Source: Dehalococcoidia bacterium
Lineage (GTDB): Bacteria; Chloroflexota; Dehalococcoidia; Lucifugimonadales; CBDFII01
Direction: 5' to 3'
Length of the DNA stretch: 64,000 nt
NCBI GenBank assembly: GCA_965248115.1
Contig: CBDFII010000005.1
Coordinates: forward strand, 275,123-339,122
The position numbers and the translations under genes were made by a program. A model generated the notes under the pieces. It had not been told where the DNA came from, ran no database searches, and saw only the letters and a list, made by a program, of their open reading frames with translations. The number at the start of each line of letters is the position of its first letter. Position 1 is the stretch's first letter. Of this stretch, positions 29,886 through 36,143 are shown one piece after another.

Positions 29886-30770
29886 ATGAGCATTCTGATA
29901 AACACTGATACCCGCGTTATAGTCCAGGGCATCACTGGCAGGGAGGGGAGCTTCCACGCCCGCCGCTGTCTCGACTATGGGACCAAGGTAGTAGCGGGGG
30001 TAACTCCTGGAAGGGGAGGCCAACTATTCGATGAACGTGTGCCTGTTTTCGACTCAATAGAGGAGGCTGTTAGAGAGACAGGGGCCAACACCTCACTTAT
30101 ATTCGTGCCCGCCCCCTTCGTCAGCGACACCATCATCGAGGCGGCTACCTCCGGAGTAGAGCTGGTGGTGTGCATAACCGAAGGGGTGCCTGTTTTGGAC
30201 ACTATGAGGGTGGTCCACTATATGGATAATAAGCCCACCAGGCTTATCGGCCCTAACTGCCCTGGCATTATATCCCCAGGAGCGCACTGCAAGGTGGGCA
30301 TTATGCCCGGAGCTATACACCTCCCGGGACCGGTTGGGGTGGTCTCCCGCAGCGGCACTCTCACCTATGAGGCCGTCTCCCAGCTCAGTGATCTGGGCAT
30401 AGGCCAGACCACCTGCGTTGGCGTAGGGGGAGACCCATTGGTGGGCACAGGCTTTGTGGAGGTTCTACGCATGTTTGACCAGGACCCCGAGACAAAGCTG
30501 GTGGTGCTCATCGGCGAGATCGGCGGCACCATGGAGCAGGAGGCAGCTTCCTATATAGAGCGGGAGTTTTCCAAGCCTGTGGTGGCCCTGGTGGTGGGGG
30601 CCAACGCTCCTCCCGGTAAACGCATGGGTCACGCTGGAGCTATCGTTACCGGTGAGGCAGCCCGCGCCGACGCCAAGGCGGAGGCGCTCCGACAGGCGGG
30701 CGTTACCATTGTCTCCTCTCCTGCCGAGATAGGCGCAACTGTAAAGACGGTCATGGAACGTTTGAAGTGA
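29886..30770 (+). CDS. sucD: Succinyl-CoA ligase alpha subunit
   Basis: [30 protein letters not shown]. Confidence 0.97.
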
Positions 30771-30779
30771 AGCCTCCGC

Positions 30780-30807
30780 TTGACTTGCCTAGAATATTCG
30801 CTACACT
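30780..30807 (+). promoter_or_regulatory. Sigma70-type promoter of the selenoprotein array
   Basis: TTGACT-16 nt-TACACT upstream of AGGAGG RBS and ATG 30847. Confidence 0.6.
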
Positions 30808-30846
30808 ATATCCCAAGTCCTAGGTTCGAAATAGAGGAGGCAGGAT

Positions 30847-31125
30847 ATGGAAGGTAAGGTCCACATAGAGATTACCTATTGCGTACCTTGACAGCATCAT
30901 GCCACCGCCACGTGGATGGCGAATGAGTTCTTTCGAGCTTACGGAGCCGATGCCGCTATAACTCTCACCCCTAAAGGCGGAGGCATCATGGAGGTCTTCG
31001 TCGACGGCGAGAAGCTCTTCGATAGGAAGGGCGAAGGAAATATCTTCCCCGACCTAACTCGGGTCAGAGAAATGAAGAAGATCATCCAGGAGAAGCTGGA
31101 CTCCATCCCTGTCGGCGCCGACTGA
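30847..31125 (+). CDS. Rdx/SelW-like selenoprotein, copy 1 (92 aa, CxxU)
   Basis: AGGAGG RBS; MEGKVHIEITYCVP-TGA(30889-30891)-QHHATATWMANEF..GGGIMEVFVDG..FP; typical Rdx family layout. Confidence 0.88.
30904..30923 (+). promoter_or_regulatory. Candidate bacterial SECIS element (repeated in every copy)
   Basis: CGCCA/TGGCG stem with G-containing loop about 20 nt after the UGA; nucleotide-invariant in the diverged paralog. Confidence 0.55.
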
Positions 31126-31160
31126 AGTAGAGCTAAAGCGTCTTTCTAAGGAGGCAGGAT

Positions 31161-31439
31161 ATGGAAGGTAAGGTCCACATAGAGATTACCTATTGCGTAC
31201 CTTGACAGCATCATGCCACCGCCACGTGGATGGCGAATGAGTTCTTTCGAGCTTACGGAGCCGATGCCGCTATAACTCTCACCCCTAAAGGCGGAGGCAT
31301 CATGGAGGTCTTCGTCGACGGCGAGAAGCTCTTCGATAGGAAGGGCGAAGGAAATATCTTCCCCGACCTAACTCGGGTCAGAGAAATGAAGAAGATCATC
31401 CAGGAGAAGCTGGACTCCATCCCTGTCGGCGCCGACTGA
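31161..31439 (+). CDS. Rdx/SelW-like selenoprotein, copy 2
   Basis: Identical to copy 1. Confidence 0.85.
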
Positions 31440-31474
31440 AGTAGAGCTAAAGCGTCTTTCTAAGGAGGCAGGAT

Positions 31475-31753
31475 ATGGAAGGTAAGGTCCACATAGAGAT
31501 TACCTATTGCGTACCTTGACAGCATCATGCCACCGCCACGTGGATGGCGAATGAGTTCTTTCGAGCTTACGGAGCCGATGCCGCTATAACTCTCACCCCT
31601 AAAGGCGGAGGCATCATGGAGGTCTTCGTCGACGGCGAGAAGCTCTTCGATAGGAAGGGCGAAGGAAATATCTTCCCCGACCTAACTCGGGTCAGAGAAA
31701 TGAAGAAGATCATCCAGGAGAAGCTGGACTCCATCCCTGTCGGCGCCGACTGA
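31475..31753 (+). CDS. Rdx/SelW-like selenoprotein, copy 3
   Basis: Identical to copy 1. Confidence 0.85.
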
Positions 31754-31788
31754 AGTAGAGCTAAAGCGTCTTTCTAAGGAGGCAGGAT

Positions 31789-32067
31789 ATGGAAGGTAAG
31801 GTCCACATAGAGATTACCTATTGCGTACCTTGACAGCATCATGCCACCGCCACGTGGATGGCGAATGAGTTCTTTCGAGCTTACGGAGCCGATGCCGCTA
31901 TAACTCTCACCCCTAAAGGCGGAGGCATCATGGAGGTCTTCGTCGACGGCGAGAAGCTCTTCGATAGGAAGGGCGAAGGAAATATCTTCCCCGACCTAAC
32001 TCGGGTCAGAGAAATGAAGAAGATCATCCAGGAGAAGCTGGACTCCATCCCTGTCGGCGCCGACTGA
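31789..32067 (+). CDS. Rdx/SelW-like selenoprotein, copy 4
   Basis: Identical to copy 1. Confidence 0.85.
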
Positions 32068-32102
32068 AGTAGAGCTAAAGCGTCTTTCTAAGGAGGCAGG
32101 AT

Positions 32103-32381
32103 ATGGAAGGTAAGGTCCACATAGAGATTACCTATTGCGTACCTTGACAGCATCATGCCACCGCCACGTGGATGGCGAATGAGTTCTTTCGAGCTTACGG
32201 AGCCGATGCTGCTATAACTCTCACCCCTAAAGGCGGAGGCATCATGGAGGTCTTCGTCGACGGCGAGAAGCTCTTCGATAGGAAGGGCGAAGGAAATATC
32301 TTCCCCGACCTAACTCGGGTCAGAGAAATGAAGAAGATCATCCAGGAGAAGCTGGACTCCATCCCTGTCGGCGCCGACTGA
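32103..32381 (+). CDS. Rdx/SelW-like selenoprotein, copy 5
   Basis: One synonymous change (GCC>GCT at 32210). Confidence 0.85.
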
Positions 32382-32416
32382 AGTAGAGCTAAAGCGTCTT
32401 TCTAAGGAGGCAGGAT

Positions 32417-32695
32417 ATGGAAGGTAAGGTCCACATAGAGATTACCTATTGCGTACCTTGACAGCATCATGCCACCGCCACGTGGATGGCGAATGAGTTC
32501 TTTCGAGCTTACGGAGCCGATGCCGCTATAACTCTCACCCCTAAAGGCGGAGGCATCATGGAGGTCTTCGTCGACGGCGAGAAGCTCTTCGATGGGAAGG
32601 GCGAAGGAAATATCTTCCCCGACCTAACTCGGGTCAGAGAAATGAAGAAGATCATCCAGGAGAAGCTGGACTCCATCCCTGTCGGCGCCGACTGA
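32417..32695 (+). CDS. Rdx/SelW-like selenoprotein, copy 6
   Basis: One missense change (AGG>GGG, R>G, at 32594). Confidence 0.85.
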
Positions 32696-32730
32696 AGTAG
32701 AGCTAAAGCGTCTTTCTAAGGAGGCAGGAT

Positions 32731-33009
32731 ATGGAAGGTAAGGTCCATCTTGAGATAGTTTACTGCGTTACTTGACAGTACCATGCTACCGCCACGTGGA
32801 TGGCGAACGAGTTTTTCAGGGCTTATGGGCCCGATGCAGCCATAACCATCACTCCCACAGGTGGCGGCATCCTGGAGGTGTTTGTCGACGGTGAGAAGAT
32901 TTACGACAGGATAGGCGAGGGAAATCGCTACCCCGATCTGACTCGGGTTCAGGAGATGAAGAAGGTCATCCAGGAGAAGCTGGACTTAGCTACCGTAAGC
33001 GCCGACTGA
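32731..33009 (+). CDS. Diverged Rdx/SelW-like selenoprotein paralog (CVTU)
   Basis: MEGKVHLEIVYCVT-TGA-QYHATATW..; 19 of 92 residues differ from copy 1, UGA retained at the same codon. Confidence 0.88.
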
Positions 33010-33053
33010 AGCAGCGATAAAACAGCTTTCTCTACCGTCAATAACGTGCTGGT

Positions 33054-33671
33054 TTAGCCCCTTCTCTCTAGGAGGGGCTGAACTTTCCCCCAAACCTGGG
33101 CCGACAGCGCCCGCACAGGTAAAGAGGCGTCCACCACAAGCCATCGTTCTCGGTTAGCGGCAGCAAGGGCGAGATAGCCTTGCTGAACTCTGCTGTGGAA
33201 ATCCAAAGCCTGGGCCTCAAAGAGATCTGGACTGCTGCCTTTTTTGCGAGCCAGCCCGACTTCGGGGGCTATAGTAAGCAATATGGTTAGCTCTGCCTCA
33301 AGCCCTCCTGTGGCGGCCTTATTTACTCGCTCTATCAGCTCCAGCGACAGCCCTCTCCCATAACCCTGGTAGGCCACCGTAGAGGCGGTGTAACGGTCGC
33401 ATATGACGATCCGGTTCCGGCTCAGGGCTGGTGTGATAACCTCCTGCACCATCTGGGCCCTGGAAGCAGCAAACAGGAAAAGCTCTGCAACAGGGGTGAG
33501 GTGGTTATAGCCCTTCAACTGGCGCCTAAGAACTCTTCCGAGAGAAGTGCCCCCGGGTTCGCGGGTATGGATGGCACTGTAGCCGTGGTTAATGAGGCGC
33601 CGAAATAAGGCCCTCGCTTGAGTGCTCTTTCCCGCCCCATCGCCACCCTCAAAGACGATGAAGGTTCCCAT
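33054..33671 (-). CDS. tmk: Thymidylate kinase
   Basis: FEGGDGAGKSTQ, TREPGGT, DRY..STVAYQG. Confidence 0.96.
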   Translation of the reverse strand: MGTFIVFEGGDGAGKSTQARALFRRLINHGYSAIHTREPGGTSLGRVLRRQLKGYNHLTPVAELFLFAASRAQMVQEVITPALSRNRIVICDRYTASTVAYQGYGRGLSLELIERVNKAATGGLEAELTILLTIAPEVGLARKKGSSPDLFEAQALDFHSRVQQGYLALAAANRERWLVVDASLPVRALSAQVWGKVQPLLERRG

Positions 33672-33681
33672 TGCAGGGCTC

Positions 33682-35214
33682 CTAAGGCTTGTACAGGGTG
33701 ACGCGCCGATGAGGCTCCGATCCCTTGCTAGTGGATGCGAGGTTATATTTCTGGGCCAGGAGATGCTGGAGTCTGCGTATGTACGCTCGCTGGGGACTCA
33801 GCTCCGTCTCGTCACCGGTCTCAAGCACTTGCTGGGCCGCCTGGTGGGCCTCAGTAAGGGCCACGTTGAAGGCCTCCTGACCATCACTGCCATTAGCCAC
33901 GGCCTTAAGGAACTGCTGTACTTGGGGAAGGGAATTGCGCCGCATCACGTAAACTGGCTTACCCATATCTTCGGCCGCCCGTACCAGCTGGGTACCTCTT
34001 CTGTAGTGACTCTTCGTGGTAAGAACAATGTCGGCGCCCCTAAGCTCGTTAACCAGGTTCGCCGCAAGGCCAATACCTTTCGCCGCCTCCTGCACCTTCT
34101 CTCGACCCACTCCAAAGAGGAATACCTTGGGCTCTCGTATCCTCTCATCGTCGCCAAAGCTACTCCTGCCAATAGATGTTAGAGAAGCATTAGAAGATGA
34201 GGCCACCTCTCTGACCCTCTGAACCTGCCTCGCCTCGTCCAGCCATCGGGTCTCGGGGGCAATAGGGTAGCCCCGAAGCCACGTATCCACCACATCGGCT
34301 ACCTCTTGGTGGATGGCAACCTTTTCCCAGCTTTGGATCTCCACCACAATGTCAAAGGTTGGCGGTGCCTTGCGCTCCAGAATGCTCTTCTGAGTTCCCC
34401 TCCTACGCGCCTCCTCATCCCCCAGAGTAACTGTCTGGACGCCGCCCACCAGATCCGAGAGGGTGGGGTTGAGGATAAGGTTGTCCAGGGTCGTGCCATG
34501 AGCGGTACCGATAAGCTGTACTCCCCGTTCGGCGATGGTGCGAGCGGCCTCTGCCTCCAACGCAGTACCCATCTCGTCGATGATTATGACCTCAGGCATG
34601 TGGTTTTCCACCGCCTCGATCATCACCGCGTGTTGGAGGGTAGGGGTAGCCACCTGCATACGACGGGCGTGACCTATAGCTGGGTGAGGTATGTCTCCAT
34701 CTCCCGCTATCTCGTTAGAGGTATCTACTATCATCGCCCTCTTGTGACCGTCGTCGGCCAACACCCGTGCCACCTCTCGCAGCATGGTAGTCTTGCCTAC
34801 GCCGGGTCTCCCTAAAAGGAGAATGCTCTTGCCTGACAGCACCAGGTCTTCGATGATGCGGATGGTGCCGAAAACGGCCCTACCCACCCGGCAGGTGATG
34901 CCTACGATCTTACCTTTTCGGTTCCTGATGGCAGAGATTCGGTGGAGAGTGCGAGGTATGCCTGCTCGGTTATCATCGCCGAACTGACTCACACGGGTCA
35001 CTACAAAGTCCAGGTCCTCTTCGGACACCTCCCGACTATCCAGAACCACGTCGCGAGAGGGGAAACGACCCTCTGGAGGGCGTCCCAGATCTAGCACCAC
35101 CTCCAGTAGGTCGTGTAGCTCCTCCCTGGTCTTGAGGGGCTCGCTAATTCTGAGAGGCAAGACGTCCAGAAGGGCGTCGAGGTCGTCTTGAATCCACTTA
35201 CCGACCCCGTTCAA
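33682..35214 (-). CDS. SpoIIIAA/Ycf45-like AAA ATPase with C-terminal R3H domain
   Basis: GRPGVGKTT, VDTSNEIAGDGD, AVENHMP, RRLQH (R3H); start approximate (TTG overlapping upstream stop). Confidence 0.9.
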   Translation of the reverse strand: MNGVGKWIQDDLDALLDVLPLRISEPLKTREELHDLLEVVLDLGRPPEGRFPSRDVVLDSREVSEEDLDFVVTRVSQFGDDNRAGIPRTLHRISAIRNRKGKIVGITCRVGRAVFGTIRIIEDLVLSGKSILLLGRPGVGKTTMLREVARVLADDGHKRAMIVDTSNEIAGDGDIPHPAIGHARRMQVATPTLQHAVMIEAVENHMPEVIIIDEMGTALEAEAARTIAERGVQLIGTAHGTTLDNLILNPTLSDLVGGVQTVTLGDEEARRRGTQKSILERKAPPTFDIVVEIQSWEKVAIHQEVADVVDTWLRGYPIAPETRWLDEARQVQRVREVASSSNASLTSIGRSSFGDDERIREPKVFLFGVGREKVQEAAKGIGLAANLVNELRGADIVLTTKSHYRRGTQLVRAAEDMGKPVYVMRRNSLPQVQQFLKAVANGSDGQEAFNVALTEAHQAAQQVLETGDETELSPQRAYIRRLQHLLAQKYNLASTSKGSEPHRRVTLYKP

Positions 35215-36143
35215 GAAGACACCTCCAAAGTGACGGAAGCGGGCTTGCTGACCCTTGCCGCCACCCACTTTACGAATTGAAGATAGATACCCACCTGATG
35301 AAAGCCCTTATGGATTAGGAACTGTCGTGCCAGCTCTTGGTGCTCCGGTAGCAACCACGACTGAAACTGACGGCAGGCTAGAGCACGCTGCACCAGGCTT
35401 GACAGCACCTCCCCCTCACCTGCGCAAACCATAAGGTCTACGTAGCTAGCATTTCGGTGAGGGTGGAGGCTCAGCCAGCCAGTTATGTTACCATCCTTGG
35501 CGTAAACCCACTCAGCGGTACCATCAACGGACCATTCTCGGGCGTTCCTCCACTGGTCGAAGGTGATGCCCAGAGCGGAACGCACCGAGACCGGCGTAGA
35601 GGCGCAATATAGCTGAAAGAGCGCGAATTCCTCGTGGGGTTGTCGGGGGCGAAGGGAGTCCGGCTCCCTCAAAGGGGAGTATTCAAAACGAGATCCACCT
35701 GCATTCCCCTGAATCAAGTGCTCGCAGAGATAGGGAGCGAATCCTGCTAGGCGTGCTGGCTCAATCAGTGGACTACCTTTAGGCATGCTAAGAAAGATTC
35801 GCTCTGCCCCTCTCTGGCCGACGTACTGGCTAAGACGTTCCAGAAGCTCCACTGCCACCCCATCGTTATCATCATCACCGATGTGTATTCTCTCTATTTC
35901 CCATACCCCGGGATCGGAGCGGACTCTCACCAAGCCAAGGGTCTGCACTTGTAAACCTTTCCAGCGGATCAAGGTGCAATGGCGTCCTTGCTGGGGCAAA
36001 AAGGACTCTTTGAGCATACCGATCTTTGTTGCCAGGGAATGGTTGCCGATCACCAGAGGGTTCTTGCTGAATGCCAGATTGGGAGACTTGGGCGAGTTGA
36101 GAAGAAGGCACCTAAGGGCGTCGTCGGTGCGTAGGGGCCGCAT
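35211..36143 (-). CDS. Hypothetical protein, possible tandem GNAT-like fold
   Basis: 310-aa ORF coupled to neighbours; two repeats ending in xGF motifs. Confidence 0.6.
   Translation of the reverse strand: MRPLRTDDALRCLLLNSPKSPNLAFSKNPLVIGNHSLATKIGMLKESFLPQQGRHCTLIRWKGLQVQTLGLVRVRSDPGVWEIERIHIGDDDNDGVAVELLERLSQYVGQRGAERIFLSMPKGSPLIEPARLAGFAPYLCEHLIQGNAGGSRFEYSPLREPDSLRPRQPHEEFALFQLYCASTPVSVRSALGITFDQWRNAREWSVDGTAEWVYAKDGNITGWLSLHPHRNASYVDLMVCAGEGEVLSSLVQRALACRQFQSWLLPEHQELARQFLIHKGFHQVGIYLQFVKWVAARVSKPASVTLEVSS

Follow-up and report, generated by a model that had tools for sequence, protein, structure and literature searches.

We analysed a window of 64,000 nucleotides (nt) from the genome of a Dehalococcoidia bacterium (assembly GCA_965248115.1, contig CBDFII010000005.1, positions 275,123 to 339,122) and found that it carries, at window positions 30835-33009 of the forward strand, a tandem array of seven genes that are each predicted to encode a SelW-like selenoprotein of 92 amino acids (aa). 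We read the array as genuine and as confined to this lineage: a SelW-like gene of the Rdx family, decoded with selenocysteine (Sec), has been amplified in tandem, and, with the decoding, the duplication history and the single mRNA proposed below, we give this reading a probability of roughly 0.82. The genome comprises 2.49 Mb in five contigs, with a completeness of 89.6%, and its contig 5 contains the window.

Based on Tandem Repeats Finder (TRF) the window contains one array, at 30835-32986 on the + strand, with a period of 314 bp, 6.9 copies, 97% matches, no indels and a score of 3943. Each unit of this repeat comprises a Shine-Dalgarno site, a 279-nt coding sequence and a 35-nt spacer. Standard calling of open reading frames (ORFs) yielded seven ORFs of 69 aa with starts at 30916 + 314*i. 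An ATG lies 69 nt 5' of each of these starts, at 30847 + 314*i, and it is preceded in all units by AGGAGG, six bases before the ATG. The frame from this upstream ATG meets a TGA at codon 15 and then a TGA stop at codon 93 in every unit, and when the first TGA is read as Sec (U) a 92-aa product results, with the motif C12-V-P-U15, which in copy 7 is C-V-T-U. Standard gene calling thus hides such genes, as it returns seven 69-aa ORFs without the active site. A preliminary description of this DNA had claimed a seven-gene tandem array at 30835-33009, AGGAGG and an ATG 69 nt upstream of the called starts, a 92-aa frame with CxxU across the TGA, six near-identical copies, and a seventh copy that differs at 19 of 92 residues while keeping UGA at the same codon; each of these points was recovered in all units concerned, the last count exactly.

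Copy 1 occupies 30847-31125, with the predicted UGA-Sec codon at 30889-30891 and a terminal TGA, and copies 2 (31161-31439), 3 (31475-31753) and 4 (31789-32067) are identical to it. Copy 5 (32103-32381) carries one synonymous change, C to T at unit position 120, and copy 6 (32417-32695) one replacement, R60G, caused by A to G at unit position 190; all copies are on the + strand. Copy 7 (32731-33009) is diverged, so that the differences from unit 1, counted over 314 nt for units 1 to 7, are 0, 0, 0, 0, 1, 1 and 68. Between copies 7 and 1 there are 47 differing codons, 28 with synonymous and 19 with replacing changes. The spacer preceding copy 7 and its first 29 unit positions are exactly as in the other units, and the divergence starts after them. 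In the whole genome (TRF, 40 rows) this was the sole long-period array of near-identical units, and the runner-up row had a score of 1163. This runner-up, at C1:7504-8745 (period 318, 3.9 copies, 72% matches), was rejected as a gene array, since its repeated domains belong to a single large protein that is probably exposed at the surface.

Several findings indicate that the UGA at codon 15 is read as Sec. Each component of the Sec machinery scored above its curated cut-off in the genome, namely selA (560 bits), selB (360 bits), selD (380 bits) and tRNA-Sec (68.5 bits). When 185,579 species genomes were scanned, 292 relatives were obtained, and the counts for named genome loci given here and below use the best 80 of them. 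The motif was CVPU in 80/80 named Dehalococcoidia/Chloroflexota genome loci, and 80 metagenome loci were divided into 44 with CVPU and 36 with CVSU. Among 29 orthologs from the same order, the aligned codon 15 was TGA in 27 and encoded Cys in 2. Two of the checks named in the preliminary description, namely the presence of the Sec machinery and of Cys or Sec at this position in homologs, therefore both came out in its favour. In the comparison of copies 1 and 7 dN/dS was 0.09 overall with a dS of 1.29, and for the first 14 codons dN was 0.13 and dS 2.1; at the level of such codon comparison we could show purifying selection on both copy types. Residues I9, Y11, C12 and position 15 (U or C) were invariant in a 31-row alignment. 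Because of the purifying selection and of the residues conserved across the order, the frame upstream of the UGA is taken to be coding.

As the array genes and sucD terminate in TGA, this codon has evidently not been reassigned genome-wide. One and the same 279-nt gene uses TGA twice, at codon 15 with a hairpin following and at codon 93 (31123-31125, and correspondingly in each unit) as a stop without one. We infer that Sec is actually inserted at UGA15. Decoding would rely on SelA, SelB, SelD and tRNA-Sec together with the short hairpin 14 nt past the UGA, and the terminal UGA, which has no hairpin, would act as stop. As a separate observation, the selD gene itself (C4:94045-94965, - strand, locus L018) carries one in-frame TGA, in the context C-A-G-U, and about 20 nt after this UGA there is an 8-bp hairpin with a GUA loop.

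The hairpin of copy 1, which resembles a Sec insertion sequence (SECIS), lies at 30906-30921 on the + strand and has a 6-nt loop with a GU in it, closed by a 5-bp stem in which 30906-30910 pair with 30917-30921. The hairpin begins 14 nt past the UGA, and all further copies, among them copy 7, have it again at steps of +314 nt; folded alone, it has an energy of -7.4 kcal/mol. In 86 sequences of the clade to which the window belongs (66 of them distinct) all five pairs were standard in 100% of the cells. The outermost pair (18-33) was C-G in 62 and U-A in 4 sequences and never half-changed, and when the partner was shifted by 1-3 columns the pairing fell to 19-60%. The four rows with U-A (L032; L064/L068/L070) fall in two separate clades of the tree, indicating that this pair arose at least twice. 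Synonymous third positions were invariant inside the hairpin and varied freely nearby. The hairpin was compared with the geometry of bacterial SECIS elements in the sense of bSECISearch, and on sequence grounds it likely acts as a SECIS. With Rfam nothing was found at gathering scores in the whole window, and nothing at E <= 1 in 30700-31500. A more distant ortholog clade (loci L034-L057, from same-order genomes) has a GGCC/GGCC stem with the loop UGGAU and a lower CGG/CCG stem, with compensatory changes in L055; the pairing partners there differ in register, but a hairpin as such seems to have been kept.

The assignment to the Rdx/SelW-like family, which had been proposed from the motif, was supported by profiles and by structure prediction. 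With PF10262 (Pfam Rdx, cut-off 22.6) copy 1 scored 54.8 bits and copy 7 51.2 bits, at an E of 1e-14, and in the genome scan all seven copies were over the cut-off with one in-frame TGA each. For NCBIfam TIGR02174 (CXXU_selWTH, cut-off 34.2) copy 7 was over at 39.5 and copy 1 just under at 33.0. The scores for NF041051 (SelTWH_Campy) were 40.2 and 41.2 bits against a cut-off of 88, placing the proteins as related to, and outside, this equivalog. An AlphaFold2 model built with 31 aligned sequences had a predicted local distance difference test (pLDDT) score of 94.1 and a predicted template modelling (pTM) score of 0.84, with the order beta-alpha-beta-beta-beta-alpha and C12/U15 between the strand at 5-12 and the helix at 18-35. 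The top Foldseek matches in the PDB were 2OKA (Pseudomonas aeruginosa), 2OBK, 2FA8 (Agrobacterium tumefaciens), 2OJL, 3DEX and 2P0G (E 1e-7 to 2e-6), which are Cys-form structures of bacterial SelW-like/Rdx proteins with the same fold (template modelling (TM) score 0.67-0.77) and 28-34% identity. In comparison to these solved proteins the array protein, which has the CxxC/CxxU redox motif of the family in the loop between strand 1 and helix 1, is predicted to be the Sec form, and its gene is present as seven tandem cistrons. Because the sequence profile (hidden Markov model) and the predicted fold agree, membership of the SelW-like/Rdx family can be regarded as established at these two levels.

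Mouse SelW (2NPB) was the next Foldseek match (E 6.5e-5), followed by thioredoxins. It has the same fold and CxxU position (TM 0.67) at only 15% identity, so that the model supports a common superfamily for the array protein and mammalian SelW, and not orthology. Unlike the array, mammalian SelW is encoded by a single gene with a eukaryotic SECIS in the 3' untranslated region (UTR). By analogy with the family fold and motif, the protein may be a thiol/selenol oxidoreductase, in which Sec15 would attack and Cys12 would resolve, giving a selenenylsulfide that would be recycled by cellular reductants. An eighth and distant Rdx paralog was seen at C4:604257-604484 (- strand, locus L006); it exceeds the PF10262 cut-off like the seven copies, has an in-frame TGA with C-H-D-U, is about 34% identical to the array protein, and carries a 5-bp hairpin with the loop UGGAU after the UGA.

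Upstream of copy 1 and outside the repeated unit there is a promoter-like site at 30780-30807 (+ strand; TTGACT, 16 nt, TACACT), a single sigma-70-like match, and copy 1 was the only copy with such a site in front of it. Both the window and 30/81 relatives have the pattern TTGAC[A/T]-16-TAnnnT, at 66-77 nt from the ATG on its 5' side. At the other end, in the stretch that separates copy 7 from the convergent gene for dTMP kinase (tmk), a 15-bp hairpin at 33051-33084, likely the end of the transcription unit, had a folding energy of -24.3 kcal/mol (z -3.96), with 0/200 shuffles as stable, and occurred only after copy 7. A scan for consensus terminators did not call it, because it has no T run. 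The 35-nt spacer between units was unstructured (-6 kcal/mol, z 0.5). Since the promoter-like site is outside the repeated unit and the only strong hairpin comes after copy 7, one mRNA most likely carries all seven cistrons. Each cistron would be translated from its own ribosome-binding site, which would give roughly seven-fold SelW-like protein per transcript. The 12 minus-strand terminator-like matches at window positions 31044-32671 were discarded as independent features, being two motifs repeated six times by the array.

We searched for similar arrays in relatives and found that the gene stands alone there. The best 80 of the 292 relatives were metagenome-assembled genomes (MAGs) titled Dehalococcoidia, Chloroflexota/Chloroflexi or SAR202, with 67-77% identity, and by their titles the relatives are largely marine and sponge Dehalococcoidia or SAR202 MAGs. 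Within the genome collection searched, the genome of the window alone represents its family and its genus. Exactly one CVPU gene was present in 80/80 named genome loci within about 4 kb on each side, many of these being complete long-read chromosomes, and 14 extra regular-expression matches in 13 of these loci turned out to be unrelated frames. One copy was likewise found in 80/80 metagenome loci, within about 4 kb on each side or up to the contig end, where many contigs are short-read ones and too short for an array. The best metagenome contig matched at 75% identity over the full-length protein, and two partial matches had 76%. We considered the best relative (G024), in which the gene lies 227 nt from the contig start, as a collapsed array and rejected this, as a normal promoter region was present there and no partial unit. 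In genomes of the same order a homolog occurred in 47/60, with a maximum of three matches each and none with more than one close homolog at one locus; in a sample of the class a homolog at E <= 1e-15 occurred in 21/400 genomes, with a maximum of two, and those on different contigs. One genome of the order (G029) has two adjacent distant Rdx homologs, at C10:159853-160083 and 160205-160426, one with and one without an in-frame TGA, which looks like a Sec/Cys pair.

In the passages of the literature that we consulted, bacterial selenoprotein genes were nowhere reported to form a tandem array, and supplementary tables (e.g. of PMC1794560, PMC2398784 and BSepDB) could list multi-copy cases. The SelW-like selenoproteins from marine metagenomes (Zhang and Gladyshev 2008, PMC2398784) share the CxxU motif with the array protein and are described in the passages seen as single genes on short reads; 'duplicat' and 'tandem' have 0 occurrences in those passages. 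In the selenoproteomes of Zhang et al. 2006 (PMC1794560), as far as the passages seen extend, SelW-like is a single entry with no copy number. According to the part of BSepDB (PMC13326102) consulted, Dehalococcoidia selenoproteomes can be large, with MAGs of 46 and 49 selenoproteins. The protein family is a known one; for the array of seven cistrons our searches gave no precedent, and within their reach it is new.

The read data consisted of four public runs (X1-X4) from one sample and one study, which are stored as k-mer contigs and are unable to span identical 314-bp units; stretches of the array without k-mer contig cover are accordingly uninformative for the repeat. In X1, exact-match contigs of the unit were 93 bp (30835-30927) at depth 34 and 276 bp (31845-32120) at depth 31.6, the latter crossing a unit-to-unit junction, and the upstream flank (contigs of 9.5 kb and 350 bp) had a depth of 5.9 and the downstream flank 3.7. 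In X2 the unit contigs of 276 bp and 95 bp had depths of 17.1 and 17.4, and the upstream and downstream flanks 2.89 and 2.7, respectively. The ratio of unit to flank depth was thus 5.4-5.8 in X1 (versus the upstream flank) and 5.9-6.3 in X2, which is consistent with six near-identical units. A collapse to one or two copies, for which the preliminary description had proposed a depth check, does not agree with a unit depth of 5.4-6.3 times the flanks in two runs.

As to its origin, the ancestral unit would have stood alone, as a gene with a promoter and a Shine-Dalgarno site of its own, a 92-codon frame, UGA15 read as Sec and a redox centre at the start of helix 1. An old duplication would have given two copies, the ancestors of copies 1-6 and of copy 7, and later a very recent amplification of the upstream copy, by unequal recombination or slippage, would have produced the six near-identical units. 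The inter-unit spacer and the 3' flank of copy 7 are homologous, indicating that the first duplication joined the 3' flank of the gene to its ribosome-binding site. That an old duplication was followed by a very recent six-fold expansion is suggested by the dS of 1.29 between the two types in comparison to 0-1 differences in copies 1-6.

A number of observations weigh against the reading given above, or against parts of it. In a quick tree (112 rows, 94 columns) copies 1/6 and 7 were basal to an 82-row clade and were not resolved as sisters, and the order of the duplications is therefore not established by it. The depth-based estimate of the copy number is rough, because the downstream flank of X1 would give a ratio of 8.5. 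No read or contig was seen that spans the whole array in the k-mer contigs of X1-X4, which are unable to resolve the repeat, so that the copy number rests on the assembly together with the depth ratio. The runs may also be the source data of the genome itself, which makes them a check of the assembly and not an independent replication. The number of promoter-like matches was not above that in shuffles; of the claim that one promoter precedes the array, the single match and the pattern at the matching distance from the ATG in 30/81 relatives stood, and a significance of the match count did not. The SECIS-like hairpin is only 5 bp long and falls within codons for conserved residues (T-A-T-W-M-A); four of the five pairs are invariant and uninformative either way, and when the 62 nt that follow the UGA were folded, the stability did not exceed that of shuffles (z -0.96, copy 1; z 0.03, copy 7). 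RNAalifold gave only 3 consensus pairs for 29 sequences from the wider order, because the distant clade pairs in a different register, and the conservation of the hairpin was therefore tested on the window clade separately.

If UGA15 terminated translation, the real products would be the 69-aa ORFs from the internal ATG, which are what standard ORF calling yields, and they would not be selenoproteins. We regard this as scarcely credible, since the Shine-Dalgarno site precedes the upstream ATG and the internal ATG was found without one, purifying selection acts on the 14 codons that lead up to the UGA and these are conserved across the order, some orthologs have Cys in place of U, the Sec machinery is complete, and the 69-aa form would lack the family-defining CxxU centre. 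Assemblies are known to be weak in counting the copies of near-identical tandem repeats, and with contigs from X1-X4 that cover pieces of the array only, and nothing spanning it, a long-read assembler could have inflated one or two true copies to seven. Such an artefact is improbable in view of the raised unit depth in two runs and the 276-bp contig that crosses a junction; the private single-base changes in units 5 and 6 and the absence of any other near-identical long-period array from the genome also speak against it.

With a real array of selenoprotein genes, it can still be asked how it came to its present state. An old array could have been kept uniform by concerted evolution (gene conversion), with copy 7 at the edge having escaped homogenisation. 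The abrupt change in copy 7, from identity over the preceding spacer and 29 unit positions to divergence, would fit a conversion or crossover boundary, and the dS of 1.29 makes the two copy types old. However, the other edge copy, copy 1, is identical to copies 2-4, and because this edge copy is undiverged we consider concerted evolution the weaker alternative and an unlikely one. No relative with two adjacent orthologs was found either, yet the genome of the window is the sole member of its family searched. A recent six-fold expansion after an old duplication thus remains our preferred history. Such an expansion could be neutral or transient, that is, an unequal-crossover event in one population without a dosage benefit, and this is quite possible, if short of an even chance. 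Copies 1-6 differ by at most 1 nt, so that the expansion is very young or has been kept uniform through conversion, and nothing similar in relatives or metagenome contigs provides a recurrence that would argue for selection. On the other hand, the depth ratio of about six in two runs suggests that the whole population, and not a minority, has about six units. Unselected tandem duplications in bacteria are quickly lost through homologous recombination, which would also speak against a neutral array, and the substitutions private to unit 5 and to unit 6 mean that the array has persisted for some time, unless they are consensus errors.

The array may instead have an adaptive dosage effect, for which the preliminary description had suggested compensation for poor UGA recoding or selection on redox or selenium handling. 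Tentatively, and with less than even confidence, we suggest a selected and maintained dosage amplification, in which seven independently initiated cistrons per mRNA, each with its own SECIS, and not a stronger promoter, offset slow and inefficient UGA decoding. UGA recoding is inefficient and limited by SelB in Escherichia coli. If the array is selected, inefficient SelB-limited recoding would be a plausible reason, and added cistrons would raise the output.

Selection-driven amplifications in bacteria consist of identical head-to-tail units with a 3'-to-5' flank junction and with the promoter outside the unit, so that the copies extend the operon. The array shares the head-to-tail arrangement, this type of junction and the position of its promoter-like site outside the unit; however, its units are only 314 bp, and its gene needs UGA recoding, so that each added copy would add a SECIS that draws on SelB. 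In selenoprotein P, multiple UGAs occur in one frame, served by SECIS elements in the 3' UTR. Several UGA-Sec events per mRNA would be common to selenoprotein P and the array, whereas the array has seven cistrons with one UGA and one in-frame hairpin each. If the reading as a selected dosage amplification is true, this would be the first natural polycistronic selenoprotein array, and seven SelB-binding hairpins on one abundant transcript should change how SelB and Sec-tRNA are shared out among the cell's other selenoproteins. The amplification marks the protein as one that is apparently needed in quantity by one lineage, and, as a rare test provided by nature, it could show to what extent dosage raises the synthesis of a protein when UGA recoding is limiting. 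What is new is the arrangement; the kind of gene, its family, the recoding mechanism and tandem amplification as a process are all known. The value of the array is that of a striking example from nature which opens a question to testing, and not that of a new mechanism or kind of system.

The genes 5' of the array are sucC and sucD, and those 3' of it are the convergent tmk and then an ORF of 528 aa. Synteny of 109 relative loci gave no operon partner as a functional clue: sucCD was upstream in 0/109, and tmk was convergent downstream in 66/109. The 528-aa ORF (window 33685-35268, - strand) has a weak match to a SpoIIIAA-like ATPase, at 66 bits versus a cut-off of 281, and adjoins tmk in 64/109 of these loci.

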